Shown: piece by piece, positions 8,465-40,382 of the stretch
How positions within the stretch are numbered: position 1 is the first letter of the stretch
How the letters are laid out: every line of letters begins with the position of its first letter
Origin: an uncultured Chloroflexia bacterium
GTDB taxonomy: Bacteria > Chloroflexota > Anaerolineae > Anaerolineales > UBA11858
NCBI GenBank assembly: GCA_963751575.1
Contig: CAVVUX010000002.1
Coordinates: 367,984-431,983, forward strand
DNA length: 64,000 nt
Reading direction: 5' to 3'
Translations under genes and position numbers: made by a program
Notes under the pieces: generated by a model
Seen by the model: only the letters and a program-made list of their open reading frames with translations
What the model was told of the DNA's origin: nothing
Database searches by the model: none

Positions 8465-8516
8465 TATAAATTCTGCAGCTGGTGATTTATTATTTAAAAC
8501 GCATTCTACAATCTAA

Positions 8517-10538
8517 ATGACTATTGTAATAATCCTGTTTTTTCTTCTTGTATTTATGTATCTGGCTTCATTTCAATTGTTGACCAGAAGAGAAAGTGCC
8601 GTCAAGGCGTTCCTGATCACGTTTGGCTGTACAGCGGTGATAACAGAATTCTTGTCCCTATTTGACCTGCTGACTGTCCAGGCAGTTTTCGCTTCCTGGT
8701 GTGGTCTGATTGGATTGCTGGGAATACTGTTCCTTCGAAAGCTGAAGGATGGTAATTGGAAATTTACCAGAGTCAGATCTATCTTTAATCTCGCTGGGTT
8801 GAAAGATCTCTCCCTCCTTGAGAAATTCATTATTCTATCTATTTTGAGCATCTTGATCTTGACTTTTCTGATTGCTATTTATTCACCTCCGAACAATTTT
8901 GACTCGATGACCTATCATATGGCTCGAGTTGTCCATTGGATTCAACAGAAAAGTGTAAGTTTTTATCCAACATCGATCCCAAGGCAAAATCATTCCATGC
9001 CTCTGGTTGAGTATTTGATACTTCATCTTCAACTGTTAAGTAAATCTGATCAGTATGCCAACCTGGTCCAGTGGGCAGGTTTTGTGATCTTGATATTGCT
9101 TGGATCAGAATTTACACGATTATTTCAGGTATCCAGGAAGGGGCAATTGCTGGCAGCTCTCTTCGCAGCCACCATACCGATGGCAATCCTGCAGAGCAGC
9201 AGTACCCAAAACGATCTGATTGTGAGCGTATTTTGTGTAAGTTTTGCTTATTATTTATCACGGATCCTACAATCACCGACGAGGGATGAGACTGTTTTTG
9301 GTGGTCTGGCCTTGGGTCTGGCACTTTTAACCAAGGGAACAGCTTATATATTTTGTGCAAGTATAGGTCTGGTCTATGGTTCAGTCAGTTTAATCAGGCA
9401 AACACAGGAAATCAGAATTAAACTCATCAAGAGTTATTTCCTGATGATTATGTTGGCACTGATATTGAATGTTGGTTTCTATCAAAGAAATTTCAACCTT
9501 TACGGGAATCCCCTTTCCACTGAAACTGAAAGGATAACAGTTGATAATCTAACACTTGGAGGATTATATTCTAATCTGGTCAGGAACTATTCCGCGCACC
9601 TGGCTGTTCCGATTCCAGCCCTAAATGAGAAACTCTCAAGTGAGGTGTCCACTTTACTCGGTGATCTTGCTGACCATCCGGCTTATACATTTTCTGGCAC
9701 ACAATTTAAGATCCACTTCTTAATTAATGATGATCATTCTGGCAACCCGATCCATTTATTATTGATCTCGCTCCTAATCTTGCTGATTCTAGCGAACAGG
9801 AAAAAAAGGATCAGGATATTGATACGCACATTGGAGCAGTAATTCTTTCTGTCCTGCTCTTTTCATTACTTTTAAAATGGCAGCCTTGGGGCACCCGGCT
9901 TCAATTGCCGATCTTTTTTCTGGGAGCTCCACTCTTTGGTATTTTCTATGACAAAACGCACCGCTCTAAATATCTACCCTATTTGCTTTGTTTGCTATTG
10001 ACGCTTTATTCACTGCCGTTCGTTTTCTTAAATGCTTCCAGACCGTTGATACCTTTATTTAGCCAGGAATCACCCCTGAGGTCAAATCGAATCAAACGGT
10101 TCTTTTCAGATCGACCTAACAGGTATACAGAATATTATGAGATCATCCGTCCGTTTTTAAGAGATATTGGTATTCTCCACACGGATCGGACAGATTCCTC
10201 TACTTTTCTGGGACCAAATGGGATTATTAGAAGACTATCTCCTAGTGATGGATGCGGTAAACGTGATTGAATGAAGATTATTATGGATTGTATCTGGGTG
10301 AAAATGATTGGGAGTATCCAATCTGGGTTTTGTCTGAGCAGACTGATCCCAGCAGGATTTCCAAAATTCATTCACGTCAGATGTTGGGGATTTATCTCCC
10401 GCACCTTGAACAGGCGATTCTGATTTTTATCCGGATTATGTCATATCGACCGAGCAATCAGGGTCTGATTGGTTAGATGCCAATCAGTATGAAATTATTG
10501 TAGATACAAAATCGATCGATCTTTATCAGAAGCGCTGA
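8517..10538 (+). pseudogene. polytopic GT-C-like membrane glycosyltransferase (PMT_2/GT39-like), frame-disrupted
   Basis: The frame-0 ORF 8517-9842 is multi-TM and contains NNFDSMTYHMARVVHW. The protein-like sequence continues in frame 2 from the A7 run 9801-9807 (..KDQDIDTHIGAVILSVLLFSLLLKWQPWGTRLQLPIFFLGAPL). It moves to frame 0 after T5 10154-10158 (LLFWDQMGLLEDYLLVMDAVNVIE), then to frame 1 (EDYYGLYLGENDWEYPIWVL). It returns to frame 0 after T5 10424-10428 (FYPDYVISTEQSGSDWLDANQYEIIVDTKSIDLYQKR, stop 10536-10538). Confidence 0.65.
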
Positions 10539-10570
10539 GTTAGGGACTCTTGAAGAATTAGTTATCGAGC

Positions 10571-10622
10571 TTGACACGATGTGAAAACACTCTATAATTC
10601 AATTATTGAATTTTAGAGTGTT
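10571..10622 (+). promoter_or_regulatory. near-consensus promoter with overlapping palindromic operator upstream of wzm
   Basis: TTGACA (10571-10576), 16-nt spacer, TATAAT (10593-10598). The inverted repeat AACACTCTATAATTCAA / TTGAATTTTAGAGTGTT (10586-10602 / 10606-10622) pairs at 16 of 17 positions around a 3-nt centre and includes the -10 hexamer. Confidence 0.7.
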
Positions 10623-10651
10623 CGTTTTCAAGGAACCACGATGATTTTCTG

Positions 10652-11521
10652 GTGTACAACAAAAAAATAGGTAATCTTATGGCACAGTCTGATCTAAAAA
10701 TACCCCAAATAATTATCGATGCCGATCAAGAGAACCGGAAAATTATCAATTGGCGGGAACTTTGGCAGTATAAGGACCTGTTCTTTTTTTTGGTCTGGCG
10801 GGATATTAAGACCAGGTATGCCCAATCGATCCTGGGAGTGGGTTGGGCTATTATCCAGCCGGTATTTTCAATGATTGTGTTTACTATTGTTTTTGGAAAT
10901 TTAGCAAAAGTCAATTCGGAGGGGGTACCCTATGCAATCTTCAGCTTTACAGCCTTGGTGCCCTGGACTTTTTTCTCTACATCGCTAACAAGTGCCAGTG
11001 GAAGCCTGATCAGCTCTCAACGCTTGCTTACCAAAGTCTATTTCCCAAGATTAGTGATCCCAATTGCACCTGTCCTGGGGAAGCTGGTCGATTTTGGGAT
11101 AGCTTTTCTGATACTGCTCGGTTTAATGGTTTGGTACAAAGTGACACCAACGATCTGGTCCTTACTTGTCCCGGTCTTTGTGCTCTTAATGGCGCTAACT
11201 GCTGCCGGAGTGGGAATGTGGCTGACAGCCCTGTCGATCCAATACAGGGATATTCGGTATGGCGCTGATTTTTTTGTTCAGTTGTTATTATACGCTTCGC
11301 CCGTTATCTATGCGACCAGTATCATTCCTGAAAAATTCCAAATCCTGTACGCTTTGAATCCTATGGTAGGAGTAATCGAAGGTTTTCGAGCTGCCCTGCT
11401 GGGTACTCGGTCTATGCCTTGGGAGTTTTTAGGAATTGGCACCTTAATGTCAATCGCATTTTTCCTCAGCGGGGCATTGTATTTTCGATCGATGGAACGC
11501 TATTTTGCTGATGTAGCCTGA
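10652..11521 (+). CDS. wzm: ABC-2 type polysaccharide/O-antigen export permease
   Basis: 289-aa multi-TM ORF with an ABC-2 permease layout, directly followed by an ABC ATPase gene. The alternative start ATG 10679 (MAQSDL) is plausible. Confidence 0.8.
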   Translation: MYNKKIGNLMAQSDLKIPQIIIDADQENRKIINWRELWQYKDLFFFLVWRDIKTRYAQSILGVGWAIIQPVFSMIVFTIVFGNLAKVNSEGVPYAIFSFTALVPWTFFSTSLTSASGSLISSQRLLTKVYFPRLVIPIAPVLGKLVDFGIAFLILLGLMVWYKVTPTIWSLLVPVFVLLMALTAAGVGMWLTALSIQYRDIRYGADFFVQLLLYASPVIYATSIIPEKFQILYALNPMVGVIEGFRAALLGTRSMPWEFLGIGTLMSIAFFLSGALYFRSMERYFADVA

Positions 11522-11546
11522 TTATCAAGTATACAGAAGAATTTTT

Positions 11547-12839
11547 ATGTCCAAAAACGTTATCAAAGTTGCCAATTTATCTAAACGGTACCGGATCGGA
11601 TCTGAAAAACTGTCCCGGGATACGCTGGCTGAAGTTTTCTCAGATTGGGTGACCAGACCAATCAAAAATTTACGCAGGTTGAGAAAGCTGACCCAATTCG
11701 ATCAAGTTGATCAGCAAGAAGATGATATTGTCTGGGCTCTTAAGGATGTCAATTTTGAAGTGAAGCCTGGAGAGGTAATTGGAGTTATTGGTAAAAATGG
11801 AGCCGGGAAGAGCACATTATTAAAGATCCTCAGCAGGATCACGTATCCGACGCAGGGCAGGGTAGAGCTGAACGGAAGGGTCTCAAGTTTGCTGGAAGTG
11901 GGAACCGGATTTCATCCAGAATTGACTGGTCGGGACAATGTTTATTTAAATGGAACGATCCTGGGGATGACCAGGACAGAGATCGATCGGAAATTTGATG
12001 AAATAGTCGAATTCTCAGGAATTAAAAAGTTCATCGACACACCGGTCAAGTTTTATTCAAGCGGGATGGGCGTCAGGCTGGCATTTTCAGTCGCAGCTCA
12101 CCTAGAGCCTGAAATATTATTAATCGATGAGGTTCTTTCCGTTGGTGATGCAGCCTTCCAAAAGAAATCCCTGGGTAAAATGGAAGAGGTATCCGAACAA
12201 GGTAGAACGGTGTTATTTGTCAGCCACAACATGGGTGCTGTCCGGTCACTTTGTACCCGGGGATTACTGCTAGAAGATGGTTGTCTGACCCTGGACGCAG
12301 ATGTGGACAACGTGATCAATACCTACTTATCAAGCAAAGATGTATCTTCATCCGGGAGCTTAGCCTGGACCGAGGCGGATGCTCCGCGAGATGCAGAATT
12401 AATCCTATTTGGGATACAGGTTGTATCTGAATCGGGAGATGTCAAGACTGCATATCAGATCGATGAGGGTTTTAAGATCAAAATTCATTACCAGATCCTG
12501 GAGGAAGTAAAAAACCTCCGCTTGTATCTCCGTTTTAAATCAACCATGAGCGAAACTATCTTTGCCACTTATGAGGATTCGCAGATCCAGGAAGGGTTTA
12601 ACCGCAAGCCTGGACATTACACAGCAGTCTGTAAGATTCCACCCAATATTCTTAATAATCTGACCTACCGGATCTATATTGGTTTTGATTCTCCGGGCAA
12701 TAAAGTGTTGATACCCGGGAAAGAATATCTGGAGGTTGATATTGTCGATACATCGGATGGCTATCGTTATGACAGGGATGCTTTTGATGGACCTGTCCGT
12801 CCGGTATTCGATTGGCATGTTGAAGAACGAGGCAGGTAA
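11547..12839 (+). CDS. wzt: polysaccharide/O-antigen export ABC ATPase with C-terminal carbohydrate-binding-type domain
   Basis: Walker A GKNGAGKST, signature-like YSSGMGVRLAF and Walker B LLIDEVLSVGD. About 175 extra C-terminal residues (after ~aa 255) are beta-rich, as in Wzt_C-type domains. Confidence 0.85.
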   Translation: MSKNVIKVANLSKRYRIGSEKLSRDTLAEVFSDWVTRPIKNLRRLRKLTQFDQVDQQEDDIVWALKDVNFEVKPGEVIGVIGKNGAGKSTLLKILSRITYPTQGRVELNGRVSSLLEVGTGFHPELTGRDNVYLNGTILGMTRTEIDRKFDEIVEFSGIKKFIDTPVKFYSSGMGVRLAFSVAAHLEPEILLIDEVLSVGDAAFQKKSLGKMEEVSEQGRTVLFVSHNMGAVRSLCTRGLLLEDGCLTLDADVDNVINTYLSSKDVSSSGSLAWTEADAPRDAELILFGIQVVSESGDVKTAYQIDEGFKIKIHYQILEEVKNLRLYLRFKSTMSETIFATYEDSQIQEGFNRKPGHYTAVCKIPPNILNNLTYRIYIGFDSPGNKVLIPGKEYLEVDIVDTSDGYRYDRDAFDGPVRPVFDWHVEERGR

Positions 12840-12860: not shown

Positions 12861-13751
12861 ATGAAAATCATTTATTTTACTAAAGGTGTCAGGGGCAGCA
12901 AATGCCTGGAGCATATCCTGGAAAATGGTTTCCAGATTGGTGCGGTGATCGGAGTTATTCCCGAAATCGAGATCCAAAAACTGAGTGAACAGTTTGATTT
13001 TCCGGTTATATTCCTGGACAAGATCAATTCACCCGAATCCGTTGCCCGCCTAAAAGTATTAGAGGGGGATTTATTTGTCCTCTGTGGTTATAACAAAATC
13101 ATCAAAAACCAGGTAATCGGGATACCGCCACTGGGAACGATAAATTTGCATGGTGGAAAATTGCCAGAATACAGGGGTGCAGCTCCAATCAACTGGCAGA
13201 TCATCAACGGGGAAAAGACCGGAGGTTGCGCCATCATCTTCGTCGATGAGGGCATAGATACAGGGGCTATCATCACTCAGGAGATGTATCCTATCTCTGA
13301 TCAAGATACCCACGCCAGCATCCTTGCTAAAACTCTGAATATATTCCCCCGGTTGCTGGTTGATGTCCTGAGACAGGTTGAGGAAGGAACTGTGAATGCA
13401 GTTCCCCAAGACCCAAAAGCGGGTGGCTACTTTGGTCGGAGATATCCCAGTGACAGCCAGATCGATTGGGAAAATATGACAGATCTCCAAGTGCATAACC
13501 TTGTCCGCGGTATGCATGGGCCATACCCATCAGCTTATAGTTTCAGGGAAAGGCAAAAAATCGAAATTGAAAAAACGGAATTACTGATTGATTCTGTATC
13601 AGGATCACCAGGGACAGTAGCCCAGATCCGGGGCACTGGAGCGATTATCACAGCGTGTAATAGGGGATTATTGGTCAAGGATTTACGAGTCAATGGAGAA
13701 AAATTCGACCCCGCTGCAATCTTGAATGCAGGGGATAAGTTAATTTATTAG
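12861..13751 (+). CDS. formyltransferase (Fmt/ArnA-N-like; probable sugar N-formyltransferase)
   Basis: Formyl_trans_N signature INLHGGKLPEYRGAAPINWQIINGE and FVDEGIDTGAII, followed by a C-terminal Fmt-like subdomain. It lies next to DegT aminotransferase and SDR genes. Confidence 0.8.
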   Translation: MKIIYFTKGVRGSKCLEHILENGFQIGAVIGVIPEIEIQKLSEQFDFPVIFLDKINSPESVARLKVLEGDLFVLCGYNKIIKNQVIGIPPLGTINLHGGKLPEYRGAAPINWQIINGEKTGGCAIIFVDEGIDTGAIITQEMYPISDQDTHASILAKTLNIFPRLLVDVLRQVEEGTVNAVPQDPKAGGYFGRRYPSDSQIDWENMTDLQVHNLVRGMHGPYPSAYSFRERQKIEIEKTELLIDSVSGSPGTVAQIRGTGAIITACNRGLLVKDLRVNGEKFDPAAILNAGDKLIY

Positions 13752-13771
13752 CAAAACAGAGGATGGATTAG

Positions 13772-14749
13772 ATGAGTAAAGTGCTGATAACAGGTGGAGC
13801 AGGGTTTATTGGATCCTATGTGAGCAGAAAACTGCTCGATCAAGGCCATGAAGTAATTATCTATGATGCTTTTGTCCACTATATATCGCCCTTAAAGAGC
13901 GTTTTAAAGGATTTCACAGAACTGCGTTTCGAGGGGATAGCCGACCAGATCGATTTCCGGCGGGGCGACACACGGGATAAAGCGCATCTTCGCAGGATTA
14001 TTCTCGAAACCAAACCGGATCATATCCTTCATTTAGCAGCATTACCGATTGCAGATCTATCCAACAGGCACTCAGAAGAAGCCCTTGCCAGCATTCTTGA
14101 AGGAGCTGTGAATGTTCTGGAGGTACTTAGGGATGTAGATTTCGTGAATAGATTTGTCTATATATCATCATCTATGATTTATGGTGATTTTGAACAGGTT
14201 CCTGCTCCGGAGGATCATCCCAAGCGGCCGAAAGATATCTATGGTGGAACCAAATATGCTGGAGAAATACTGACCGAAACATACAGCAGGCGCTATAACA
14301 TCCCCTACAGCATCATCCGTCCCTCAGCAGTTTACGGCCCCTTCGACGTCAATCGCAGAGTAAGCCAGATCTTTGTGGAGAATGCCTTACTTGGAAAACC
14401 GATTACTCTTTATGGTGGCGGGCGCCAGGTACTGGATTTCACTTTTGTGGAAGACATAGCAGATGGGATCATCAAGGTTATGTTTTCTAAGAAAGGTTTG
14501 GGAGAAGCGTTTAATATTACTTACGGTTTGGGATACACTTTGCGGGAACTGGCTGATATCTTGCTAACTCATTTTGAGGATCTTGAAATAAAAATTGTTG
14601 AAGAAGAAGATGTATTCCGTCCCAAACGCGGTGCGCTGTCGATTGAAAAAGCAAAATCTCTGGTCGGATATGACCCCCAATATTCGCTTGATGCTGGCAT
14701 TCAGCGCTACCTGGATGTTTATCAAAACCTTGCGGTGTTCAAGAAATAA
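13772..14749 (+). CDS. NAD-dependent epimerase/dehydratase (extended SDR)
   Basis: GGAGFIGS Rossmann motif and YGGTKYAGE (YxxxK); 325 aa. Confidence 0.75.
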   Translation: MSKVLITGGAGFIGSYVSRKLLDQGHEVIIYDAFVHYISPLKSVLKDFTELRFEGIADQIDFRRGDTRDKAHLRRIILETKPDHILHLAALPIADLSNRHSEEALASILEGAVNVLEVLRDVDFVNRFVYISSSMIYGDFEQVPAPEDHPKRPKDIYGGTKYAGEILTETYSRRYNIPYSIIRPSAVYGPFDVNRRVSQIFVENALLGKPITLYGGGRQVLDFTFVEDIADGIIKVMFSKKGLGEAFNITYGLGYTLRELADILLTHFEDLEIKIVEEEDVFRPKRGALSIEKAKSLVGYDPQYSLDAGIQRYLDVYQNLAVFKK

Positions 14750-18972: not shown

Positions 18973-20040
18973 ATGAAAAAAGCGATCATTACTGGAATTA
19001 CAGGGCAGGATGGATCATATCTGGCTGAGCTGCTGCTCCACAAGGGATATGAAGTGCATGGTGTGATTCGGAGAGCCTCAACCTTTAATACCAACAGGCT
19101 GGATCATCTTTATCGGGACCCTCACAATGGGGAGGAGGTTAAACTTTATCTTCATTATGGTGATCTCACGAGTTCAGATAGCCTTGAACGGGTGATCCAT
19201 GAAGTTCACCCGGATGAGGTTTACCATCTCGCTGCTCAAAGTCATGTTCGGGTTAGTTTTGACCTACCAGAGTATACCGGAGATGTTTCAGGTTTAGGTA
19301 CGATCAGGATCCTGGAAGCTATCCGCCGGTCAGGAATCAAGACCCGCTTCTATCAGGCTTCTACAAGTGAATTATTTGGAAGTGCTGACCCTCCTCAAAG
19401 CGAGCTGACACCATTTCAACCTCAGAGCCCGTACGCAGCGGCTAAATTATATGCGTTTTGGGTTACCAGGAATTACTCAGAGGGTTATGGTCTATTTGCC
19501 TGTAATGGAATTTTGTTTAACCACGAATCTCCCCGCAGGGGCGAGACCTTTGTTACCAGGAAAATAACCAGGGCAGTAGCAAGGATTAAGGCAGGAGTCC
19601 AGAAAAAACTTTACTTGGGAAACCTGGAGTCTAAACGAGATTGGGGCTATGCCCCGGAATATGTTGAAGCGATGTGGTCTATGCTCCAGCAAGAACAACC
19701 CTATGACATCGTGATCGGGACAGGAGAAGCACATACAGTTCGCGAATTTGTAGAGGAAGCGTTCAGTTATGTTGATCTCAATTACAAAGATTATGTAGAG
19801 ATCGATCCACGCTACTTCCGACCTACAGAAGTTGATTATCTGGAAGCTGATCCCGGCAAAGCAAAAAGAATCCTCAACTGGGATCCAAAAGTCCGGTACC
19901 ACGACCTGGTCAGGATCATGATGGATGCAGATCTTGAGTTGATTGGTTTGGACTCACCCGGCTTTGGAAAAAAGATTATAGATGAAAAATTTGATGTCTG
20001 GCATAAATGGGAAGACCAGGTAGTCAGCATGGGGAGATGA
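18973..20040 (+). CDS. gmd: GDP-mannose 4,6-dehydratase
   Basis: [34 protein letters not shown] and [17 protein letters not shown] are classical Gmd blocks. Confidence 0.9.
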
Positions 20041-21020
20041 AAATGATGAATCCAGATCAATTTCCTGATCCATTTGAATTTTGGTTGGATAAGACAGTTT
20101 GTGTCACCGGCGGTGATGGATTCCTGGGCAGCTTTGTCCAAAAAACCCTTCGGGAGCGAGGCGTTGAGAATATTTTTATTCCCCTGATCGATGATTACGA
20201 TCTTACTGAAACTGACAATATCCGGCGCATGTTATCAGACGCAAAACCAGATATTATCATTCACCTGGCTGCCTTAGCTGGCGGCATTGGTGCTAATCGA
20301 GCTCGTCCGGCGGAATTTTTCTACAAGAATCTGATGATGGGGGTTCCGCTGATGCATGAAGCCTGGAAATTTGGTGTTAGTAAATTTGTGGCTATTGGAA
20401 CAATCTGTGCTTATCCAAAATACACCCCGGTTCCCTTTAAAGAAGAAAACCTCTGGGAAGGATATCCCGAAGAAACAAACGCACCATATGGATTGGCGAA
20501 AAAAATGTTATTGGTTCAGGCTCAAGCCTATCGTGAACAATATGGCTTTAATGCAATCTACCTGCTTCCGGTAAATCTTTATGGCCCCCGGGATAATTTT
20601 AACCTTGAAACATCCCATGTCATCCCTGCCTTGATCAGAAAGATGGTCGATGCAGCAGATCAGGGGATTGATGAAGTTGTATTGTGGGGTGATGGATCCC
20701 CGACCCGGGAATTTTTCTATGCCGGAGATGCAGCCAGGGGCATCGCGATGGCTGCTGAAAGGTACGATGGCAGCGATCCAGTTAATCTTGGCGCAGGAAT
20801 GGAGATCAGCATCAAGGATCTGGCAGAATTAATTGCCCGCTCAGTTGGCTATACGGGTCGGATAGTGTGGGATTCAAGCAAACCTAATGGCCAACCAAGA
20901 AGAGCCCTTGATACCCAACGGGCCAAAGAATATTTTGGATTTGAATCAGAAATGCCGTTTGAGGATGGAATTGTGAAAACGATCGAATGGTACAGGGCAA
21001 ACAAAGATCAAATTGTATAG
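20037..21020 (+). CDS. fcl: GDP-L-fucose synthase (GDP-4-keto-6-deoxymannose 3,5-epimerase/4-reductase)
   Basis: [21 protein letters not shown] and [12 protein letters not shown] 20037 overlaps the gmd stop (ATGA). The track start at 20007 is an upstream extension. Confidence 0.85.
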
Positions 21021-28848: not shown

Positions 28849-30594
<1,746 letters not shown>

Positions 30595-30666: not shown

Positions 30667-31489
30667 ATGAACGGAATTCAAGAGTTATTTGACCTGACGG
30701 GAAGGGTTGCAATTGTAACTGGTGGAGCGGGGTTTCTTGGACAGCAGTTCTCAGAAGCATTAACTGAAGCTGGTGCCTCGATCGTTGTGGCTGATATCAA
30801 TCAAAAAGACGCTAGTCATTTTGCTGCAAAACTGGAAGACAAAGGTGGCAAAGCCATGGGTATTTCCGTGGATGTCACGGACCCTTACTCAGTTCAGAGC
30901 TTAATGGAAGAAACCCTGAAGAAATTTGGCAGATTGGATATTTTGGTTAATTCTGCCGCGCTGGACCCCAAATTTGAGGGAATTTCTTCTGAAAAACATG
31001 CCACGTCATTTGAAGAATTTTCACTTGATTCCTGGAAAGAAGCCCTTGATGTGAACTTGACTGGTATGTTCCTGATCTGTCAGGCAGGCGGCAAAGATCA
31101 TGAAGATCTCAGGCAAAGGATCGATCATCAATATATGTTCGACCTACGGCATAACTGGACCAGATCAGCGGTTATATGAGTCCCTTGGTGAACCCAGGCT
31201 CTACAAACCTGTCTACTACACAGTCAGCAAAGCTGGTGTATTGGGTCTAACAAAATATATCGCGACCTATTATGAAGGCACAGAGATCCGCTGTAATGCA
31301 CTCACACCGGGGGGAGTGGAACGAGAGCATGCTCAGGCATTTAAGGAAGCCTACAGCAGCAGAACAGTGCTGGGCAGGATGGCATATCCCCATGAGATGA
31401 AAGGAGCGGTTGTATTCCTCGCTTCTGAAGCATCGAGCTATATGACAGGATCTAATCTGGTTGTAGATGGAGGATGGACCGCATGGTAG
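30667..31489 (+). pseudogene. short-chain dehydrogenase/reductase, one frame disruption
   Basis: TGGAGFLGQ Rossmann motif, NSAA, then a +1 shift at ~31095-31100 (..CQAGGK | IMKISGKGSIINICS). The catalytic YTVSKAGVLGLTK (YxxxK) lies in the second frame. Confidence 0.7.
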
Positions 31490-32266
31490 AAGTACTGACA
31501 TTTATCCCGGCCCGGGGAGGATCAAAGGGTATTCCCCGGAAAAATATCAAGAATCTGGCTGGACATCCCTTGATTGCCTACAGCATAGCTGCATCCTTAG
31601 AGGCAGAATTGGTTAAGAGAACTATTGTCACCACTGATGATCCTGAAATAGCCGAGATTGCCCGGAAGTATGGGGCAGAAGTGCCTTTTCTACGGCCTGA
31701 AGAACTGGCGCAGGATGATACCCGGGATCTGCCGGTTTTTCAGCATGCATTGACCTGGCTAAAAGAGCAGGAGGGTTATCAGCCAGACCTGGTTGTCCAG
31801 CTCCGGCCAACCAGTCCCTTCCGTCCACCAGGCTTGATTGATGAAGCGATCAATATACTGTTGGATAACCCCGAGGCAACCTCTGTTCGAGGAGTTGTTC
31901 CTTCAAATCAGAATCCTTATAAAATGTGGCAGATCCTGGAAAATGGTGCAATGCGGCCAATTCTGGCATCTGGATCAATCAGAACCTTATAATATGCCCC
32001 GCCAGGAATTGCCGCAGACTTATTGGCAGACCGGTCACATTGATGTGATCAGGACTGAGACAATTCTCAATGGATCAATGACTGGCGATAATGTCTATGC
32101 TTGTCTGATTGACCCGATTTACTCGATAGATCTGGATAGTGCCCTGGATTGGGAGCAAGCAGAATCCCGGATCCCGGATTTGGGAACGAAAATCACGTTT
32201 CCTGGCTCCACAAAGATTGGATCCCTAAAGATATATCTCTGGTCGTTCTGGATTTTGATGGTGTGA
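31474..32266 (+). pseudogene. neuA: N-acylneuraminate (nonulosonate) cytidylyltransferase, one frame disruption
   Basis: FIPARGGSKGIPRKNIKNLAGHPLIAYSI is the CTP_transf_3 N-terminal signature, followed by LRPTSPFR. A +1 shift at ~31960 precedes ..EPYNMPRQELPQTYWQTGHIDVI. The 3' end overlaps, and may be fused to, the HAD phosphatase ORF. Confidence 0.75.
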
Positions 32267-32715
32267 TAACTGATGATCGGGTCTATGTCAATCAGCATGG
32301 CGAAGAATCTGTGGCTGCCCACCGGGGAGATGGCATGGGTATAGCCATGCTAAAGAAGACTGGTGTTGAAGTGATTATTTTGTCCACGGAAAAGAATCCA
32401 GGTCGTTCAGGCCCGGGCGATAAGTTGGGTGTTGAAGCTTTTCAGGGCATTGATGACAAAAAAAGCTACCTGGAATCTATTCTTACAGAGAAGAAAAGTC
32501 CGGGCAGCCAGGTTGCCTATGTGGGTAATGATTTGAATGATTTGGCTTGTTTTTCGCTGGTTGGTTGGGCTGTGGCTGTTGCTGATGCCCATCCTGACCT
32601 GCTTAATCAAGCTCAGCTCATTTTAAAAAAGAAAGGTGGTCATGGGGCAGTCCGGGAATTATGTGATTTGATTATTAATGATAAGAAACAATCTGAAACA
32701 AGAATTAAGGAGTGA
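32149..32715 (+). CDS. HAD-superfamily phosphatase, KdsC / nonulosonate-9-phosphate phosphatase type (start uncertain; possibly fused to neuA)
   Basis: LVVLDFDGVITDD is HAD motif I, and YVGNDLNDL is motif IV (GDxxND-like). The size and layout resemble KdsC. Confidence 0.7.
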   Translation: MGASRIPDPGFGNENHVSWLHKDWIPKDISLVVLDFDGVITDDRVYVNQHGEESVAAHRGDGMGIAMLKKTGVEVIILSTEKNPGRSGPGDKLGVEAFQGIDDKKSYLESILTEKKSPGSQVAYVGNDLNDLACFSLVGWAVAVADAHPDLLNQAQLILKKKGGHGAVRELCDLIINDKKQSETRIKE

Positions 32716-36155: not shown

Positions 36156-37124
36156 ATGAATACTTCTAAACCTCTCTGTTCAATTGTGATCCGGGCTTTT
36201 AATGAAGAAAAGCACATTGGAAAGCTGCTTGCAGGTATCCAACTGCAGACCTATCCGGCAGTTGAGATAATCTTGGTAGATTCTGGTTCGAGAGACAACA
36301 CGCTGAAAATAGCCAGTAAGTATCCCGTTAAAATAGTTCCAATTGCTTCTTCTGAGTTTACGTTTGGGCGATCTCTTAATCGCGGTATTGCTGCCGCAGC
36401 TGGTGATCTGATTGTCATCATCAGTGCCCATTGTTATCCGGTTTATCCAGATTGGTTGGAAAAAATGCTTGACCCATTTGAGGATGATCTGATTGCCGTC
36501 AGTTATGGAAAGCAGCGGGGTGGTGAAAGCAACCATTTCTCTGAGCATCAATTTTTCAGAACCTATTTTCCCGATATCAGCCAACCCGATCAGGGTCAGC
36601 CATATACCCACAATGCCAATGCTGCAATTCGCAGATCGATTTGGGAGCAGCATCACTACGATGAAGGCATAACAGGACTGGAAGATCTGGCTTGGAGTAG
36701 TTGGGCGAAGGAGGAGGGTTATAAAATCGCCTACGTGGCCGAAGCCGAGATTATTCATATTCACGATGAAACTTACGGTCAGGTTCAGAACCGCTATCAA
36801 AGGGAAGCCATTGCTATGAAGCAGATCCTGCCCGAGAGCAAATTTTCTTGGCGAAACATGATCAGTATGCTGCTGAGAAAGGTCGCCAGGGATTTTTCTC
36901 AATCAAAGAGGGAGGGGAGGTTTTTTAAAGAGTTCTGGGGAATTATTCGCTTTCGTTTTATGCAATATCTGGGTACCTGGCAAGGATACCGCTATTCTGG
37001 CAAGATCGATCAGAATCTTCACACAAAGTTTTACTATCCTCCTGGTATCTTGACTGAAAAAATACCTATTTCTCGGCCTGTAGAACCCATTCAGTATCCA
37101 CAAGATGCTGATGAGGAGAACTGA
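36156..37124 (+). CDS. glycosyltransferase family 2
   Basis: CSIVIRAFNEEKHIGKLL...ILVDSGSRDNT plus a DxD-like region. The ORF is an intact 322 aa. Confidence 0.75.
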   Translation: MNTSKPLCSIVIRAFNEEKHIGKLLAGIQLQTYPAVEIILVDSGSRDNTLKIASKYPVKIVPIASSEFTFGRSLNRGIAAAAGDLIVIISAHCYPVYPDWLEKMLDPFEDDLIAVSYGKQRGGESNHFSEHQFFRTYFPDISQPDQGQPYTHNANAAIRRSIWEQHHYDEGITGLEDLAWSSWAKEEGYKIAYVAEAEIIHIHDETYGQVQNRYQREAIAMKQILPESKFSWRNMISMLLRKVARDFSQSKREGRFFKEFWGIIRFRFMQYLGTWQGYRYSGKIDQNLHTKFYYPPGILTEKIPISRPVEPIQYPQDADEEN

Positions 37125-37129
37125 TATTT

Positions 37130-37798
37130 ATGACAAAATTAGCAGCCCTTGTTCCCATGAAACATAATTCCCAACGCGTTCCAGAAAAGAATTATCGGGA
37201 TCTAAGCGGAAAACCATTATTCCATCATATTTTGTTGACTTTATTATCCGTTCCGGAAATTGATCTGATTTGTGTTGACACTGATAGCATAGTGATAAAA
37301 CAAGGCATATTGGAACACTTTCCAGCTGTCACTGTAATTGACCGCCCGCTGGACTTGAGGGCTGATACCATCCCTATGAACCGGATTATCGAACATGATA
37401 TGTCAGTGATCCAGGCTGATTTATATCTGCAAACTCACAGTACCAATCCATTGTTAAAGGCCGAGACTATATCCAGGTCCATCAGGTTGTATCATGATCT
37501 AAAAGATCAATCTGACTCTTTATTCTCGGTTACTCGTTTGCAAAAACGGCTTTACAGCAGGGCAGGTAAGGCATTAAACCATGACCCTTCAGAATTGGTC
37601 CAAACCCAGGATTTACCACCTTTGTACGAAGAAAATTCATGCATCTACCTTTTTTCTGAGGCTGGAATGAAAAAATCTGGCCATAGGATCGGCAGCAATC
37701 CTTTGATGTTTGAAATTGACCCTTCTGAAGCCTGGGATATAGATACACCGCTGGATTTTAAGATTGTCCAATGTTTGATGAATCAGAAAGGTAGGTGA
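37130..37798 (+). CDS. acylneuraminate cytidylyltransferase-family (CTP_transf_3) nucleotidyltransferase, second copy
   Basis: LAALVPMKHNSQRVPEKNYRDLSGKPLFHHIL matches the N-terminal CTP_transf_3 pattern. The ORF is an intact 222 aa. Confidence 0.7.
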   Translation: MTKLAALVPMKHNSQRVPEKNYRDLSGKPLFHHILLTLLSVPEIDLICVDTDSIVIKQGILEHFPAVTVIDRPLDLRADTIPMNRIIEHDMSVIQADLYLQTHSTNPLLKAETISRSIRLYHDLKDQSDSLFSVTRLQKRLYSRAGKALNHDPSELVQTQDLPPLYEENSCIYLFSEAGMKKSGHRIGSNPLMFEIDPSEAWDIDTPLDFKIVQCLMNQKGR

Positions 37799-37801
37799 AT
37801 T

Positions 37802-38770
37802 ATGCCGATAGTTTTGTTTTCAGCGCCCTACATGATTCCATTTCTTGACAGGTTTCAACCTGTTCTGGCCAGATTTGGGGTAGAGTTGATCGTCCCCGAG
37901 GTTGAAGAGCGACTTGAAGAGGAACAGATTCTGGAATTTGCAGGAAAATTTGATGGGGTGATTTGTGGAGATGACCGGTTTTCCCGCCAGGTTATAGAGG
38001 CCTGCCTGCCAAGATTGAAGGTGATCTCCAAATGGGGTACGGGGATCGATTCGATCGATAAAGAGGCCTGTCAGGAGTTAGGAGTTGTTCTCGGTAATAC
38101 ACCAAATGCCTTTACAATTCCTGTTGCAGATTCGATTCTGGGTTATATGCTCAGCTTCGCCCGCCAGCTTCCCCAAATGGATCGAGCCATGAAAGAAGGA
38201 AACTGGAAAAAGATTCCGGGAAAGTCTTTGAGTGAATGTATCCTTGGCGTCATAGGTATCGGCAATATTGGTAGTGCAGTCGTTACCCGGGCCCATGCTT
38301 TTAATATGAAAATTCTTGGTACTGATATTCGCCAGATCGATTCGGATTTTGTCAAAAAATATTCCTTGGAAATGGTCAGTTTGAAGGAGTTGCTGGAAAA
38401 ATCAGATTTCATCAGCATCAACTGCGATTTGAATCCATCCAGCCATCACATCATTGATAAAACTGCTCTTTCGATTATCAAACCTGGAGCAATCCTGATC
38501 AACACTGCCCGGGGTCCATTAGTGGATGAGAAAGCCTTAATAGAGGCTTTGCAATCTGGGCGATTGGCTGGAGCAGCCCTGGATGTTTATGAGTTTGAAC
38601 CTTTGCGAGAGGACAATCGGCTGAGGACATTTGCCAACGTGTTGTTAGCGCCTCATAACTCCAATTCAAGTCCGGGTGCCTGGGAGAAGGTTCACTGGAA
38701 TACAATCAAGAATTTGTTGGATGGTTTGGATATACGTTACCAGATCAATGAAAAGGGTGAAATCTCATGA
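37802..38770 (+). CDS. D-isomer-specific 2-hydroxyacid dehydrogenase family protein
   Basis: GVIGIGNIGSAV is the NAD-binding motif. LINTARGPLVDEKAL and APHNSN match the catalytic R/E/H pattern of the family. Confidence 0.8.
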   Translation: MPIVLFSAPYMIPFLDRFQPVLARFGVELIVPEVEERLEEEQILEFAGKFDGVICGDDRFSRQVIEACLPRLKVISKWGTGIDSIDKEACQELGVVLGNTPNAFTIPVADSILGYMLSFARQLPQMDRAMKEGNWKKIPGKSLSECILGVIGIGNIGSAVVTRAHAFNMKILGTDIRQIDSDFVKKYSLEMVSLKELLEKSDFISINCDLNPSSHHIIDKTALSIIKPGAILINTARGPLVDEKALIEALQSGRLAGAALDVYEFEPLREDNRLRTFANVLLAPHNSNSSPGAWEKVHWNTIKNLLDGLDIRYQINEKGEIS

Positions 38771-39525
38771 AAAATAAAAGTGTCGTGATTACAGGCGCGG
38801 CTGGCGGAATAGGTCAAGCATCGGTCAAAGTATTCATTAAAGATGACTGGTTTGTTTTTGGTATAGATCGATCATCTTATCCGGGTAAGTTTCCAGATTC
38901 CGGTTTATTTATTAAAGCTGATGTCGCCGAGGAAGAAGATTGGAATGAAATTCATTCTAAGATCTCCAAACTCACAAACAATATTGATGGATTGATTAAC
39001 AATGCTGCTATTCAGATTACTAAACCGCTGGTAGAAACATCAGTTGAAGAGTGGGACAAAGTATTGAACGCAAACTTGAGATCAGTATTTCTCAGTGTGA
39101 AAATGCTCTATCCATTATTGAAATTGGGTAGAGGAGGCGCAATAGTCAATGTTTCATCGGTCCATGCAGTAGCAACATCGAAAGATATCGCAGCTTATGC
39201 TGCTTCAAAGGGCGGCATGCTGGCCCTGACCAGGGCCCTGGCTGTTGAATTAGCGGAAGACAATATCAGGGTCAATGCGGTTCTGCCGGGAGCAGTCGAT
39301 ACCGGAATGCTCAGGGCTGGTTTAAACAGGGATCATGCAGGCGGAGGTTCCGCCGAGGAACGCCTGGAAAATTTAGCCCGCAGAACGGTCAGCGGGAAGA
39401 TCGGAACACCGGAAGAGATTGCCCGGGCAATCCTTTTTCTGACTGATAATGATAGGTCGTCCTTTATAACCGGCCAGCCATTGATCATTGATGGTGGTGC
39501 CACCGCAAGATTGAGCACAGAATAA
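38767..39525 (+). CDS. short-chain dehydrogenase/reductase
   Basis: TGAAGGIGQ, NNAA, YAASKGGMLALTR (YxxxK) and IIDGG. The start overlaps the upstream stop (ATGA). Confidence 0.8.
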   Translation: MKNKSVVITGAAGGIGQASVKVFIKDDWFVFGIDRSSYPGKFPDSGLFIKADVAEEEDWNEIHSKISKLTNNIDGLINNAAIQITKPLVETSVEEWDKVLNANLRSVFLSVKMLYPLLKLGRGGAIVNVSSVHAVATSKDIAAYAASKGGMLALTRALAVELAEDNIRVNAVLPGAVDTGMLRAGLNRDHAGGGSAEERLENLARRTVSGKIGTPEEIARAILFLTDNDRSSFITGQPLIIDGGATARLSTE

Positions 39526-39529
39526 GTCT

Positions 39530-40382
39530 ATGACTTCTTTTAAGCAATCTCTCCGGGATATGCTCCCACCTGAACTTTACCAGTCTCTCCAGAATGGCAG
39601 AGATGCCATTGTTCGTCTGGCTGACATTCCAGGTGTATATCTTCATCCCTGGAAATTGGATTCCAATCGCAGGATCATCAAATATCAAAACAGGTATTCT
39701 GGACAACGCTGTTTTGTGATCGGCAATGGTCCAAGTTTGAACAAGATGGACCTATCTTACCTGAAGAATGAAATCACCTTTGGTATGAACAGGGTTTATC
39801 TTGCATTTAATGAGTGGAAATTCCAAACAAGTTTTTTGGTGTCAATAAACGATCTGGTGATTGAACAGAGCCGGGAGGAATTACGTGAATCTGACCATGC
39901 CCAAATTCTTTTCATGGCGGTCACGAGAGCTGCTGTACCCGGAACGGCCAACCGGATGAGCATACTCATTTTTTGCATACACATCCTATACCGGACCAAA
40001 ATTTTCTGATCACCTGCGGGCACGTTTTTGGGAGGGAGCTACAGTGACTTATATCTGTCTCCAGCTGGCCTATTGTATGGGTTTCCAGGAAGTTTATTTG
40101 ATCGGCGTGGATCATAATTTTGATACAAAAGGAAAAGCCAATCAGACAATTACATCAAAAGGAAATGACCCCAATCATTTTAGTCCTGATTATTTTGGGA
40201 AAGGTTTCCGCTGGCAGCTGCCGGACCTGGAGACCTCAGAAAGAGCGTATCGCCTGGCAGATCAAAAATATTTGCAAAATGGTCGGCAAATTTTTGATGC
40301 TACGCTTGGTGGAAAATTATCAGTCTTCCCAAAGGTAGATTATAAAGGACTATTCAGCGGAGATCGGAGGGGCATCATATAA
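39530..40382 (+). pseudogene. CstII (GT42)/Maf (DUF115)-like putative nonulosonic-acid transferase, frame shift plus in-frame TGA
   Basis: CFVIGNGPSLNKMDLSYLKNEITFGMNRVYLAF parallels the GNGPSL block of CstII/Maf proteins, and TVTYICLQLAYCMGFQEVYLIGVDHNF parallels the second conserved block. The frame moves 2>0 between 39861 and 39897, and there is an in-frame TGA at 39957-39959. Confidence 0.55.

Follow-up and report, generated by a model that had tools for sequence, protein, structure and literature searches.

CMP-activated acidic sugars, among them the sialic acids, Kdo, Pse and Leg, influence the recognition of cell surfaces by hosts, phages and immune systems. To our knowledge, every ulosonate pathway described so far forms its product through condensation of PEP or pyruvate with a smaller sugar. 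Canonical ulosonate modules, such as the Kdn pathway and the predicted Kdo pathway of CroV, contain a PEP-condensing synthase and a phosphatase, yield a 2-keto acid, and proceed through CTP activation and Maf/MptE-like transfer. Here, we describe a gene unit that appears to share the 2-keto acid, the CTP activation and the Maf/MptE-like transfer with these modules, but that has two dehydrogenases instead of the synthase and phosphatase. Judging from its sequences, the most likely role of this unit is the synthesis and attachment of an acidic sugar of an undescribed kind. None of its members is characterized in the literature searched, which included a review of giant-virus glycans and held no description of a GT2-CT-HADH-SDR unit. 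Its carriers are Chloroflexota, cultured marine Alphaproteobacteria and giant-virus-like contigs.

The unit was found in a 64,000-nt stretch of DNA from an uncultured Chloroflexia bacterium (the window). Three genes on the + strand (37130–39525) had been singled out as intact and tightly packed, which the ORF list and Pfam confirm: a cytidylyltransferase (CT2, 37130–37798, 222 aa), a 2-hydroxyacid dehydrogenase (HADH, 37802–38770, 322 aa) and a short-chain dehydrogenase (SDR2, 38767–39525, 252 aa). CT2 and HADH are separated by a 3-nt gap, while HADH and SDR2 overlap by 4 nt. The families originally proposed for them (CTP_transf_3, D-2-hydroxyacid dehydrogenase and SDR) agree with the Pfam assignments of all three genes. 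Five nucleotides upstream of CT2 lies a family-2 glycosyltransferase gene, GT2a (36156–37124, + strand; Pfam Glycos_transf_2, 1.6e-25), and 4 nt downstream of SDR2 starts an MptE-like/DUF115 (Maf-family) ORF (39530–40382, + strand), which encodes a putative CMP-ulosonate transferase and which, in the assembly, is interrupted by a frame change. These flanks had been described as a GT2 and a CstII/Maf-like gene; the GT2 and Maf/MptE assignments hold, but CstII (GT42) is without any support. In our reading, the surrounding 40 kb island encodes a cell-surface glycan.

Directly upstream, at 30.6–35.2 kb, the window carries a canonical ulosonate module (NeuB/HAD/CT1, here module 1), in which NeuB scores 349 bits against NeuB_NnaB and CT1 is fused to a phosphatase of the KdsC/YrbI family; from these matches, it looks like a Kdn/Neu5Ac-9-P-type route. 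The trio (37130–39525) is also found in an independent assembly contig (L092), with 99.97% identity over window positions 36375–39333, and its sequence is therefore reproducible. At least 12 frame changes fall within 30.6–45.7 kb, none of them in the trio, the GT2 or the sulfotransferase gene, and the broken genes of the window have intact versions in orthologous loci. The original prediction set the intact trio against module 1, and this difference does exist in the assembly; however, a density of ~0.7 frame changes per kb would by itself leave 2.4 kb untouched in ~18% of cases, and the contrast thus lacks significance.

The trio enzymes fall outside the canonical Neu5Ac, Pse, Leg and Kdo pathways, as had been suspected: none of them reaches an NCBIfam equivalog cut-off, and their PDB relatives are distant. 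CT2 belongs to PF02348 (CTP_transf_3; 1e-25, 91.3 bits, cut-off 22.6), with PseF as its top NCBIfam match (60.4 bits vs a cut-off of 205.7) and only 15–32 bits to the KdsB models (cut-offs 155–255). Its top PDB sequence match is the CMP-Kdn synthetase PpNeuA of Prymnesium parvum (9t4z, 8.8e-10). The same structure heads the Foldseek matches of the CT2 AlphaFold model (pLDDT 80.8) at 2.5e-19 and TM 0.76, and the leading matches (9t4z, 6ifd and N. meningitidis NeuA, 1eyr) span TM 0.72–0.77. CT2 thus shares Pfam family, fold, CTP-binding Lys/Arg and the metal Asp pair with CMAS and CMP-Kdn synthetases, but is only 21–24% identical to them. In the alignment, the P-loop K21, the cytosine-binding R71 and the metal-binding D209 and D211 of N. 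meningitidis NeuA (Nm) correspond to K20, R72, D203 and D205, which are conserved across the CT2 clade, and the P-loop residue Nm R12 is conservatively changed to K11. CT2 represents a distinct CTP_transf_3 subfamily with intact catalytic residues.

The sugar pocket offers hints about the substrate. The C5-pocket gatekeeper is hydrophobic in Neu5Ac enzymes and an Arg in Kdn-specific enzymes; in PpNeuA, Arg196 forms a hydrogen bond with O5 of Kdn, and its replacement in R196L flips the preference to Neu5Ac (PMC12934254). CT2 has R186 in this column, with Arg in every CT2-clade member aligned. As in PpNeuA, where this Arg selects 5-OH (Kdn) over 5-NHAc (Neu5Ac), the gatekeeper is in the Kdn-type and not the Neu5Ac/Pse/Leg-type state, which suggests a non-aminated substrate. 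Two other columns depart from CMAS throughout the clade: H103 replaces a strictly conserved sugar-binding Gln (Nm Q104/Pp Q110) and T159 replaces Nm R165, a conserved Arg that comes from the partner subunit in NmCMAS. Both the Gln and the Arg are kept in PpNeuA, NmNeuA and mouse CMAS, and the Gln contacts O8 and N5 of sialic acid (PMC12934254). Their loss points away from a standard 9-carbon substrate. CT2-clade domains also occur fused to GT29 sialyltransferase-like domains. These fusions, the retained CTP and Mg residues, the CMP-Kdn synthetase as nearest fold and top match, and the Maf transferases support a CMP-ulosonate product, and CT2 is predicted to be a CMP-ulosonate synthetase.

HADH contains both domains of the 2-hydroxyacid dehydrogenases (PF02826, 2-Hacid_dh_C, 6.8e-59; PF00389, 2-Hacid_dh, 1.8e-16). 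With SerA/PHGDH and the GhrB/TkrA-type reductases, it shares the two-domain architecture, the Arg-Glu-His set and 2-hydroxy/2-keto chemistry. Its top NCBIfam match is PGDH (TIGR01327, 213.9 bits vs a cut-off of 454) and its top PDB match is 1wwk (1.5e-51); the matches also include 9m0t, one of the 2-ketogluconate reductases of this family, which act on sugar acids. The catalytic residues are retained in the motifs NTARGP, EFEP and APHN, which align with R236, E265 and H283 of PHGDH, where R236E and H283A each abolish activity (PMC8081924). Where PGDH has VRS, RAG, ER and H(I/L)G, the subfamily to which HADH belongs shows GDD, KWG, the loss of two residues and HN, with H(I/L)GA as a whole replaced by HN(S/A)N. 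The positions of PHGDH R135′ and of the VRS Arg54, which we take to be another residue that holds the 3-phosphate in PGDH, are gaps flanked by GDD, and the cleft carries Asp-Asp, Lys-Trp and Asn at the phosphate-contact positions of PGDH. R135′, contributed by the partner subunit, contacts the phosphate of 3-PG in PHGDH, and its loss costs only ~3-fold in Km (PMC8081924), so the missing phosphate contacts are supportive rather than decisive evidence against a PGDH role. HADH homologs directly follow CT2 homologs across phyla. HADH is a distinct, CT-linked D-2-hydroxyacid dehydrogenase subfamily with intact catalytic residues, and it is predicted to make a 2-keto group.

SDR2 is a classical NAD-type short-chain dehydrogenase by its motifs and Pfam matches (adh_short 5.9e-47, 160 bits; adh_short_C2 2.2e-51): its translation contains ITGAAGGIG (TGxxxGIG), INNAAI (NNAA), VSS (the Ser) and YAASK (YxxxK). 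The top PDB match is a glucose 1-dehydrogenase (3vtz, 1.2e-38). Among the NCBIfam models, glucose 1-dehydrogenase (PRK07231) ranks second with 176.5 bits (cut-off 215) and aldose dehydrogenase (PRK06398) fourth with 172.8 bits (cut-off 341), with another family on top. Similarity among classical SDRs is a poor predictor of substrate. The SDR domains fused to CT domains are 31–47% identical to SDR2, and two that were compared with both are ~24% identical to SDR1.

The original prediction treated the trio as a coupled unit, and a genome-neighborhood (co-occurrence) analysis bears this out: the trio is co-conserved in Anaerolineae, the CT-HADH pair extends across phyla, and fusions of CT to HADH or SDR are numerous. 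The unit is present in at least 579 loci of species-representative genomes, the best 80 of which are almost all from Chloroflexota. Of the 58 Anaerolineae loci whose sequence continues for at least 9 kb downstream, HADH is present in 53, SDR2 in 51 and the MptE-like gene in 48, in the same order. Across ~80 Anaerolineae species this order persists, including loci in which inserted genes for large membrane proteins interrupt the unit. Within the 150 best family representatives, 12 CT-HADH, 11 CT-SDR2-like and three GT2a-CT fusions were found. The trio is a real functional unit.

This unit exceeds the trio. GT2a equals HADH in conservation (present in 41 of the 53 Anaerolineae loci that extend at least 5 kb upstream), and P0244, P0248 and P0319 combine it with a CT2-clade domain in one protein (38–46% identity). 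A GT2a homolog (37–40% identity) lies directly upstream of the CT2 homolog in Thalassovita, Gemmobacter, Sulfitobacter, Phaeobacter and Paracoccus, making GT2-CT-HADH contiguous in five alphaproteobacterial genera, while in Pararhizobium it is located 3.3 kb downstream of the CT-HADH pair. The PDB matches of GT2a span the generic GT2 nucleotide-binding region only. Based on this linkage, we count GT2a as a core member of the unit and as a candidate for transferring what CT2 makes. Behind the trio there is usually the MptE-like gene. Its window copy is frameshifted and gives a sub-threshold PF01973 match (16–18 bits), and the intact ortholog in L002 (PF01973 1.8e-15, 57.6 bits vs a cut-off of 34.6) aligns to it by tblastn as two pieces in different frames (39530–39895 and 39876–40355). 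In E. coli strains that produce the nucleotide-sugar donor, Maf enzymes modify flagellin with Neu5Ac and Kdo (bioRxiv 10.1101/2020.06.03.131540), and by analogy the MptE-like product is a putative CMP-ulosonate transferase whose donor is predicted from the Maf family.

SDR is the least universal member of the trio. All seven alphaproteobacterial genera examined have the CT-HADH pair and four have an MptE-like gene, but Alphaproteobacteria lack an SDR2 ortholog. Instead, an XylB-like SDR and an SMP-30/gluconolactonase flank the core in Thalassovita, Sulfitobacter and Phaeobacter. This SDR scores best as a D-xylose 1-dehydrogenase (267–280 bits; next family 196–198 bits) and, at 28–33% identity, is not an ortholog of SDR2. 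On giant-virus-like contigs, a CT-SDR fusion is accompanied by separate HADH and MptE-like genes, and the fusion also occurs on GVMAG contigs.

The best explanation, which we consider about evenly balanced, is that GT2a, CT2, HADH, SDR2 and the MptE-like protein work as one glycan-building module. From the sequences, what such a module makes and passes on is probably a CMP-linked 2-keto sugar acid that carries no N-acyl group and differs from Neu5Ac, Pse, Leg and Kdo. More tentatively, the acid may arise by a specific route from aldose through aldonate to 2-ketoaldonate, in which the identity of the sugar is likewise a prediction. SDR2 would oxidize a free aldose at C1 to an aldonolactone that opens to the aldonate. 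HADH would then oxidize the 2-hydroxyl of the aldonate, giving a 2-ketoaldonate, that is, a 3-hydroxy ulosonic acid, which would cyclize to a hemiketal. CT2 would join the anomeric hydroxyl of this hemiketal to CMP using CTP, and GT2a and/or the MptE-like enzyme would transfer the sugar onto the cell-surface glycan encoded by the 40 kb island. On this route, a PEP-condensing synthase (NeuB or KdsA) would be unnecessary. HADH-type enzymes strongly favor reduction, and oxidation would need the pull of the CTP-driven step. SerA and PdxB work in the oxidation direction proposed for HADH, whose substrate would be an unphosphorylated sugar acid and whose pull would come from cytidylylation.

Several observations support this aldose route. 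HADH chemistry interconverts 2-hydroxy and 2-keto acids and the substrates of the CT family are 2-keto sugar acids, so the CT-HADH fusions fit consecutive steps. The XylB-like SDR and lactonase of the three alphaproteobacterial clusters form a classic aldose-to-aldonate pair, resembling the front end of the Weimberg/Dahms pathways (XylB and XylC), which leads from aldose via lactone to aldonate. These clusters differ from Weimberg/Dahms in lacking the aldonate dehydratase and in being biosynthetic glycan clusters rather than catabolic operons. The nearest solved relative of SDR2, glucose 1-dehydrogenase, was also counted in favor. Against the route, the SDR2 of the window belongs to a different SDR subfamily from the XylB-like enzyme, and no lactonase was seen in the window or in other Anaerolineae contexts, nor in giant-virus-like ones. 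In the literature searched, 2-ketoaldonate residues were not documented as common glycan parts, and only a trace was found, a mention of hexulosonic acid among E. coli K antigens (PMC4702918). Somewhat doubtful, in turn, is the broadest form of the proposal: a CMP-activated 2-ketoaldonic acid (3-hydroxy, non-3-deoxy), made via two aldose dehydrogenations, as a nucleotide sugar of an undescribed class and a widespread yet overlooked component of surface glycans in Anaerolineae, marine Alphaproteobacteria and giant viruses. If true, such a condensation-free route would be a source of a new nucleotide sugar for glycobiology, could explain unassigned α-keto-acid signals in environmental ulosonic acid surveys, and would provide a handle on giant-virus glycans and on the envelope glycans of Anaerolineae, a group abundant in sediments and in the sludge of wastewater.

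Alternatively, the unit could be a tailoring branch, which we regard as unlikely but the most serious competitor. Here, a NeuB/KdsA module would make a Kdn- or Kdo-like acid, SDR2 and HADH would alter it (by epimerization, keto formation or side-chain oxidation) and CT2 would activate the altered acid, so that the glycan bears both plain and modified ulosonic acids. In keeping with this, in three unrelated lineages the unit neighbors a complete canonical ulosonate module that has a CT of its own: NeuB/HAD/CT1 in the window, resembling a Kdn/Neu5Ac-9-P route, kdsA/kdsB in Thalassovita, and KdsC-KdsA with a KdsB-like gene in L099, where a NanM-like mutarotase occurs in the same context. CT2 is nearest in sequence and fold to a 9-carbon Kdn enzyme and keeps its gatekeeper Arg, and a CT with the same H/T/R signature, found on E. 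coli and Enterobacter plasmids, is paired with NeuB and a phosphatase and lacks HADH; the neighboring modules, the 9-carbon Kdn enzyme as nearest fold and the plasmid CT also count against the aldose route. However, HADH acts next to the carboxylate, and in ulosonic acids this carbon is already the keto/anomeric center that CT2 needs, leaving no obvious site for HADH. In several alphaproteobacterial clusters, no NeuB or KdsA lies within reach of GT2-CT-HADH, although these hosts still make Kdo for LPS, and the Gln and Arg165 of CMAS are missing from CT2. CMAS genes are tied to a NeuB-type synthase and a phosphatase, whereas CT2 is linked or fused to a 2-hydroxyacid dehydrogenase and an SDR. 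Of the keto/hydroxy interconversion envisaged in the original prediction, creation of the sugar acid's 2-keto group seems likelier than tailoring of a pre-made ulosonic acid.

Improbable, in our view, is that HADH is a true phosphoglycerate/hydroxypyruvate dehydrogenase supplying a C3 block (glycerate or hydroxypyruvate), which would either be condensed by an aldolase to a 3-hydroxy ulosonic acid or serve as a substituent or aglycone, CT2 then activating the acid formed. PGDHs are indeed the top family and PDB matches of HADH, but it remains far under the family cut-off (214 vs 454), and the phosphate-contact positions are missing from the CT-linked subfamily in every lineage except Acuticoccus. 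In that genus, an HpcH-type aldolase, CT, PGDH-like HADH and HAD hydrolase stand in one row, which suggests a different entry route there; elsewhere in the CT2 clade, P0245 carries an additional HMGL-type aldolase domain and P0287 an additional HAD domain. No aldolase was found in Anaerolineae, most alphaproteobacterial or giant-virus-like contexts. The weak match of GT2a to glucosyl-3-phosphoglycerate synthase (GpgS, 4.9e-10) would fit such a block, but is no better than those to many GT2 families. The earlier suggestion that the trio activates a hydroxy-acid substituent is likewise disfavored. Finally, that generic glycan or housekeeping genes are adjacent by chance is very improbable: their family names are generic, and classical SDRs and 2-hydroxyacid dehydrogenases are ubiquitous, but this reading is contradicted by repeated independent fusions of exactly these families, by the gene order that persists despite inserted membrane-protein genes, and by the co-occurrence of the CT2 and HADH subfamily signatures in bacteria and giant-virus-like contigs.

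The trio had been proposed as a candidate for undescribed sugar chemistry; database comparison found no characterized pathway that matches it, and the candidacy is supported. Phaeobacter, Thalassovita, Sulfitobacter and Paracoccus all include cultured carriers, for example Phaeobacter italicus, Thalassovita gelatinovora and Sulfitobacter sp. D7, and for enzymology the natural fusion proteins offer convenient material.

The three genes of the trio lie on the + strand and encode a cytidylyltransferase (CT2, 37130-37798, 222 aa, Pfam CTP_transf_3), a D-2-hydroxyacid dehydrogenase (HADH, 37802-38770, 322 aa, Pfam 2-Hacid_dh and 2-Hacid_dh_C) and a classical SDR (SDR2, 38767-39525, 252 aa, Pfam adh_short). 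CT2 and HADH are separated by a 3-nt gap and HADH overlaps SDR2 by 4 nt, while the family-2 glycosyltransferase GT2a (36156-37124) ends 5 nt from CT2 and the ORF of an MptE-like (DUF115) protein (39530-40382) starts 4 nt from SDR2. ORF coordinates and Pfam families thus bear out the original prediction of three intact, tightly packed genes, and an independent assembly contig matches 36375-39333 with 99.97% identity. The flanking genes had been read as a GT2 and a CstII/Maf-like gene; the GT2 and Maf/MptE-like assignments stand (PF01973, with an intact orthologue scoring 57.6 bits), but CstII (GT42) is without any support. Two corrections follow from the comparisons described here: the unit takes in GT2a and the MptE-like gene, and the SDR is its least universal member. 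A scan for promoters and terminators gave matches at chance level.

We regard this module as a widespread, uncharacterised nucleotide-sugar branch that works like CMP-ulosonate supply-and-transfer modules. None of the three proteins reaches an NCBIfam equivalog cut-off: CT2 scores best against PseF (60 bits versus 206), HADH against PGDH (214 versus 454) and SDR2 against generic SDR models. Assignment to a known pathway was rejected, as searches of NCBIfam, Pfam and PDB sequences returned generic or sub-threshold matches only. A unit that couples a cytidylyltransferase with a 2-hydroxyacid dehydrogenase and an SDR is not described in the literature searched, which covered the gene combination, DUF115/MptE, ulosonic acids of Anaerolineae, CMP-sugar plus aldonate chemistry, and giant-virus glycans. 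A comprehensive review of the latter discusses only a predicted Kdo pathway (PMC9614988). For glycans containing hexulosonic acids, a partly poorly targeted search returned only a passing mention among the E. coli K antigens. The family, PDB and literature comparisons therefore support the earlier view that the unit is non-canonical and may represent undescribed sugar chemistry.

Species-representative genomes contain at least 579 loci with CT2 relatives, of which the best 80 were used for context. Nearly all of these 80 belong to Anaerolineae or other Chloroflexota, and the closest named relatives of CT2 come from Anaerolineales MAGs. The order CT2, HADH, SDR2, MptE-like is kept in these best 80 loci, with rearranged strands in L084. 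Where at least 9 kb of downstream sequence is available, HADH is present in 53 of 58 loci, SDR2 in 51 and the MptE-like gene in 48. Just 16 of the 80 have the three genes directly adjoining, the arrangement seen in the window. Roughly two-thirds of the loci (L015-L085) carry 1.5-7 kb of polytopic membrane-protein genes inserted among CT2, HADH and SDR2 with the order undisturbed, an unusual operon expansion that draws on transmembrane plus sulfatase/LtaS-like proteins, a 676-aa family and PMT_2-like GT-C proteins. The inserted genes were dropped as pathway clues because they encode polytopic membrane proteins rather than soluble enzymes. In L084 (Anaerolineales MAG JAIXKJ010000008.1), the upstream canonical ulosonate module (module 1) and an SDR2-MptE-like-GT2-PMT_2 block are inverted onto the opposite strand around a core of the Capsule_synth-like gene, GT2a, CT2 and HADH, showing that the island can be reshuffled while CT2 and HADH remain together.

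Seven alphaproteobacterial genera (Thalassovita, Gemmobacter, Sulfitobacter, Pararhizobium, Phaeobacter, Paracoccus and Acuticoccus) also carry CT2 homologues (42-46% identity), on plasmids or contigs. An HADH homologue (37-39% identity) immediately follows in all seven. A GT2a homologue (37-40% identity) is found in every genus except Acuticoccus, directly upstream in five and 3.3 kb downstream in Pararhizobium, and MptE-like genes are present in four of the seven. Cultured carriers include Phaeobacter italicus, Thalassovita gelatinovora (pAge77), Sulfitobacter sp. D7 (p4SUD7) and Paracoccus sp. MC1854. Orthology of the SDRs across phyla was ruled out, as the alphaproteobacterial proteins are merely 28-33% identical to SDR2.

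Gene fusions join the same families. Searched exhaustively, 1.8 billion cluster representatives yielded 7,626 CT2 relatives, and the best 150 of these include 12 CT-HADH, 11 CT-SDR and 3 GT2-CT fusions, besides one fusion to a HAD phosphatase, one to an HMGL-type aldolase domain and three to a GT29 domain. Identities of 30-64% to HADH, 31-47% to SDR2 (against about 24% to the other SDR of the island for the two domains also compared with it) and 38-46% to GT2a place the fused domains in the same families as the window genes. Co-conservation in this genome-neighbourhood comparison, together with the CT-HADH and CT-SDR fusions, upholds the proposal that the genes form a coupled unit. The CT-SDR fusion family is large and extends to giant-virus MAG contigs (IMG/VR). 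Three virus-like contigs that we inspected carry, no more than a few kb from the CT-SDR fusion, a separate, signature-bearing HADH together with an MptE-like gene, and one of their fusion proteins is the same protein as on GVMAG contigs. A DUF218 gene recurs in these three contexts. A member of the fusion family is also annotated in the annelid Owenia fusiformis, on a scaffold of 42 Mb; horizontal transfer, a viral insertion or contamination could account for it.

By sequence (8.8e-10) and by predicted fold (Foldseek 2.5e-19, TM 0.76) alike, CT2 matches best with PpNeuA, a CMP-Kdn synthetase from Prymnesium parvum. Arg196 of PpNeuA hydrogen-bonds O5 of Kdn and is confined to Kdn-specific synthetases, and the R196L variant switches preference to Neu5Ac (PMC12934254). 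R186 of CT2 falls in the same alignment column, which holds Arg in all 12 CT2-clade sequences aligned, Phe in NmNeuA, Leu in mouse CMAS and Met in CT1, the cytidylyltransferase of module 1. In the multiple alignment the CTP-binding and metal-binding residues of CT2 are conserved, and the clade has His (H103 in CT2) in place of a strictly conserved CMAS Gln and Thr (T159 in CT2) in place of a conserved CMAS Arg (Nm R165). The gatekeeper Arg, the retained CTP and metal residues and the two replacements mark CT2 as a distinct subfamily; it departs from CMAS at these two positions and scores below all equivalog thresholds. Judged by these residues, its substrate is very probably a sugar acid whose C5-equivalent position bears a hydroxyl instead of an N-acyl group.

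HADH retains the catalytic Arg-Glu-His set of its family. PHGDH R54 and R135' have no counterpart in it, as both positions are deleted, and GDD stands there in the subfamily signature; R135' touches the phosphate of 3-PG (PMC8081924). 'KWG' replaces the 'RAG' of PGDH, and 'HN(S/A)N' replaces 'H(I/L)GA'. This signature is common to the Anaerolineae, alphaproteobacterial, CT-fused and virus-like-contig copies, and is absent in Acuticoccus. Without the phosphate-contact positions of PGDH and below its equivalog cut-off, HADH is unlikely to be a serine-pathway PGDH, and its Asp, Trp, Asn and Lys would be residue types typical of sugar binding. SDR2 is a standard classical SDR whose nearest solved relative is glucose 1-dehydrogenase, and its best sub-threshold model matches include glucose 1-dehydrogenase and aldose dehydrogenase. 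PDB searches gave generic GT2 matches only for GT2a, and designed-protein noise only for the MptE-like protein.

The hemiketal hydroxyl of 2-keto sugar acids is the site at which cytidylyltransferases of this family act, and D-2-hydroxyacid dehydrogenases interconvert 2-hydroxy acids and 2-keto acids. Given the frequency of CT-HADH fusion, the two enzymes probably catalyze neighbouring steps. On the simplest reading, HADH would make the 2-keto group that CT2 activates next, so that the substrate would be an aldonic-type acid. For the module, gene linkage and residue patterns are what we observe; from these we infer a route in which the SDR would convert an aldose via a lactone into an aldonate, HADH would oxidize this to a 2-ketoaldonate, CT2 would form the CMP-sugar, and GT2a and/or the MptE-like enzyme would transfer the sugar residue. 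We favour this route as a whole only tentatively. XylB-type dehydrogenase and gluconolactonase are the classic aldose-to-aldonate pair. Next to the core in Thalassovita, Sulfitobacter and Phaeobacter lie an SDR that scores best as D-xylose 1-dehydrogenase XylB (267-280 bits, next family 196-198, under the 400-bit equivalog cut-off) and, beside it, an SMP-30/gluconolactonase-family protein. Several of these alphaproteobacterial clusters have no NeuB or KdsA nearby, and together with the dehydrogenase-lactonase context this argues for the aldonate route. Against it, SDR2 and the XylB-like SDRs are not orthologues, and the Anaerolineae and virus-like contexts showed no lactonase. For the final step, Maf-type MptE-like enzymes transfer Neu5Ac and Kdo (bioRxiv 10.1101/2020.06.03.131540), and the GT29-CT fusions point to a sialic-acid-like donor. 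These natural fusions (P0294, P0329 and P0374) pair the CT2 clade with an eukaryote-type sialyltransferase-like domain. If true, the aldonate route would yield a new class of CMP-sugar, made without condensation of PEP or pyruvate.

A branch in which the trio instead modifies a Kdn- or Kdo-like acid seems to us rather unlikely. It would suit the resemblance of CT2 to a Kdn enzyme and the repeated position of the module beside a full canonical ulosonate module that has a cytidylyltransferase of its own (in the window, in Thalassovita and on one virus-like contig), but it leaves HADH no obvious site of action. Enterobacterial plasmids also offer it some support, as they pair a cytidylyltransferase bearing the CT2 signature with NeuB in a CT-phosphatase-NeuB arrangement that lacks HADH; because of this different layout, we do not count these homologues as the same unit. 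The Acuticoccus variant (L087 plasmid, 8210-12662) has a PGDH-like HADH alongside an HpcH/HpaI-type aldolase and a HAD hydrolase; this variant and the aldolase-CT fusions suggest that more than a single entry route feeds the CT2 clade. CT2-clade or NeuA-like cytidylyltransferases repeatedly lie beside, or are fused to, pyruvate-aldolase-type domains (HpcH/HpaI in Acuticoccus, HMGL in P0245, and CroV crov266, whose 'demethylmenaquinone methyltransferase' domain we take to be RraA/aldolase-like), a hint that CMP-activated keto acids may be reached through aldolases, independently of NeuB. The crov266 protein is described as a NeuA-like cytidylyltransferase with that methyltransferase domain (PMC9614988). 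Two further readings were dropped: CDP-alditol logic (TarI/TarJ, Bcs1), as CT2 is of the CTP_transf_3 family and not IspD or TagD, and a phosphonate-type pathway of the kind seen in phosphinothricin biosynthesis, which uses a cytidylyltransferase and a PGDH-like enzyme, as none of the listed contexts contains a PEP mutase or another phosphonate gene.

Searches by tblastn with intact orthologues located at least 12 frame changes between 30643 and 45697, splitting SDR1, CT1-HAD, NeuB, the Capsule_synth-like gene, the MptE-like gene, GT2b, a sulfotransferase (three times), GT2c and a gene for a 351-aa unknown protein. The window outside 30.6-45.7 kb is mostly intact, and all split genes are intact in orthologous loci of other MAGs. 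Homopolymer errors were set aside as the general cause, since the junctions do not fall consistently at homopolymers; the frame changes may be real decay or consensus error in a strain-variable island. The truncated MptE ORF was looked up in other assemblies and nothing was found. The contrast drawn earlier between an intact trio and a broken module 1 is true of the assembly but uninformative, because a clean 2.4 kb is not statistically remarkable at this density of frame changes.

The trio sits in one large glycan island of about 40 kb (7487-49201) that encodes nucleotide-sugar dehydratases and epimerases and GT4, GT2 and several GT-C enzymes. It includes an ABC ATPase with a long C-terminal extension (11547-12839), a formyltransferase and epimerase resembling a split ArnA (12861-14749), a gmd/fcl-like pair (18973-21020), a PAPS synthase (28864-30594) and sulfotransferases. 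Module 1 (an SDR, a PseF-like cytidylyltransferase fused to a KdsC-type phosphatase, NeuB and a Capsule_synth-like transferase) is followed by the trio and then by PMT_2, Wzy_C and an InhA-like (MAM) protease. The gmd/fcl-like pair, PAPS synthase, sulfotransferases and other island genes imply a sulfated, probably deoxyhexose-containing surface glycan. CT1-HAD (31474-32715, split; 2738-3499 in L002, an intact Anaerolineae orthologue locus) is atypical as well: its PseF-like score of 163 bits lies under the 205.7 cut-off, and it carries Arg where CMAS has Gln104, Asp in place of Tyr179 and Met as the C5 gatekeeper. The NeuB that accompanies it is joined to an AP_endonuc_2 (xylose-isomerase-like) barrel in L002 and L003 and to a HAD domain in L005. 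The CT-HADH core of Gemmobacter (L088) and Pararhizobium (L091) likewise has gmd/fcl genes on its flanks, accompanied in Gemmobacter by a sulfotransferase.
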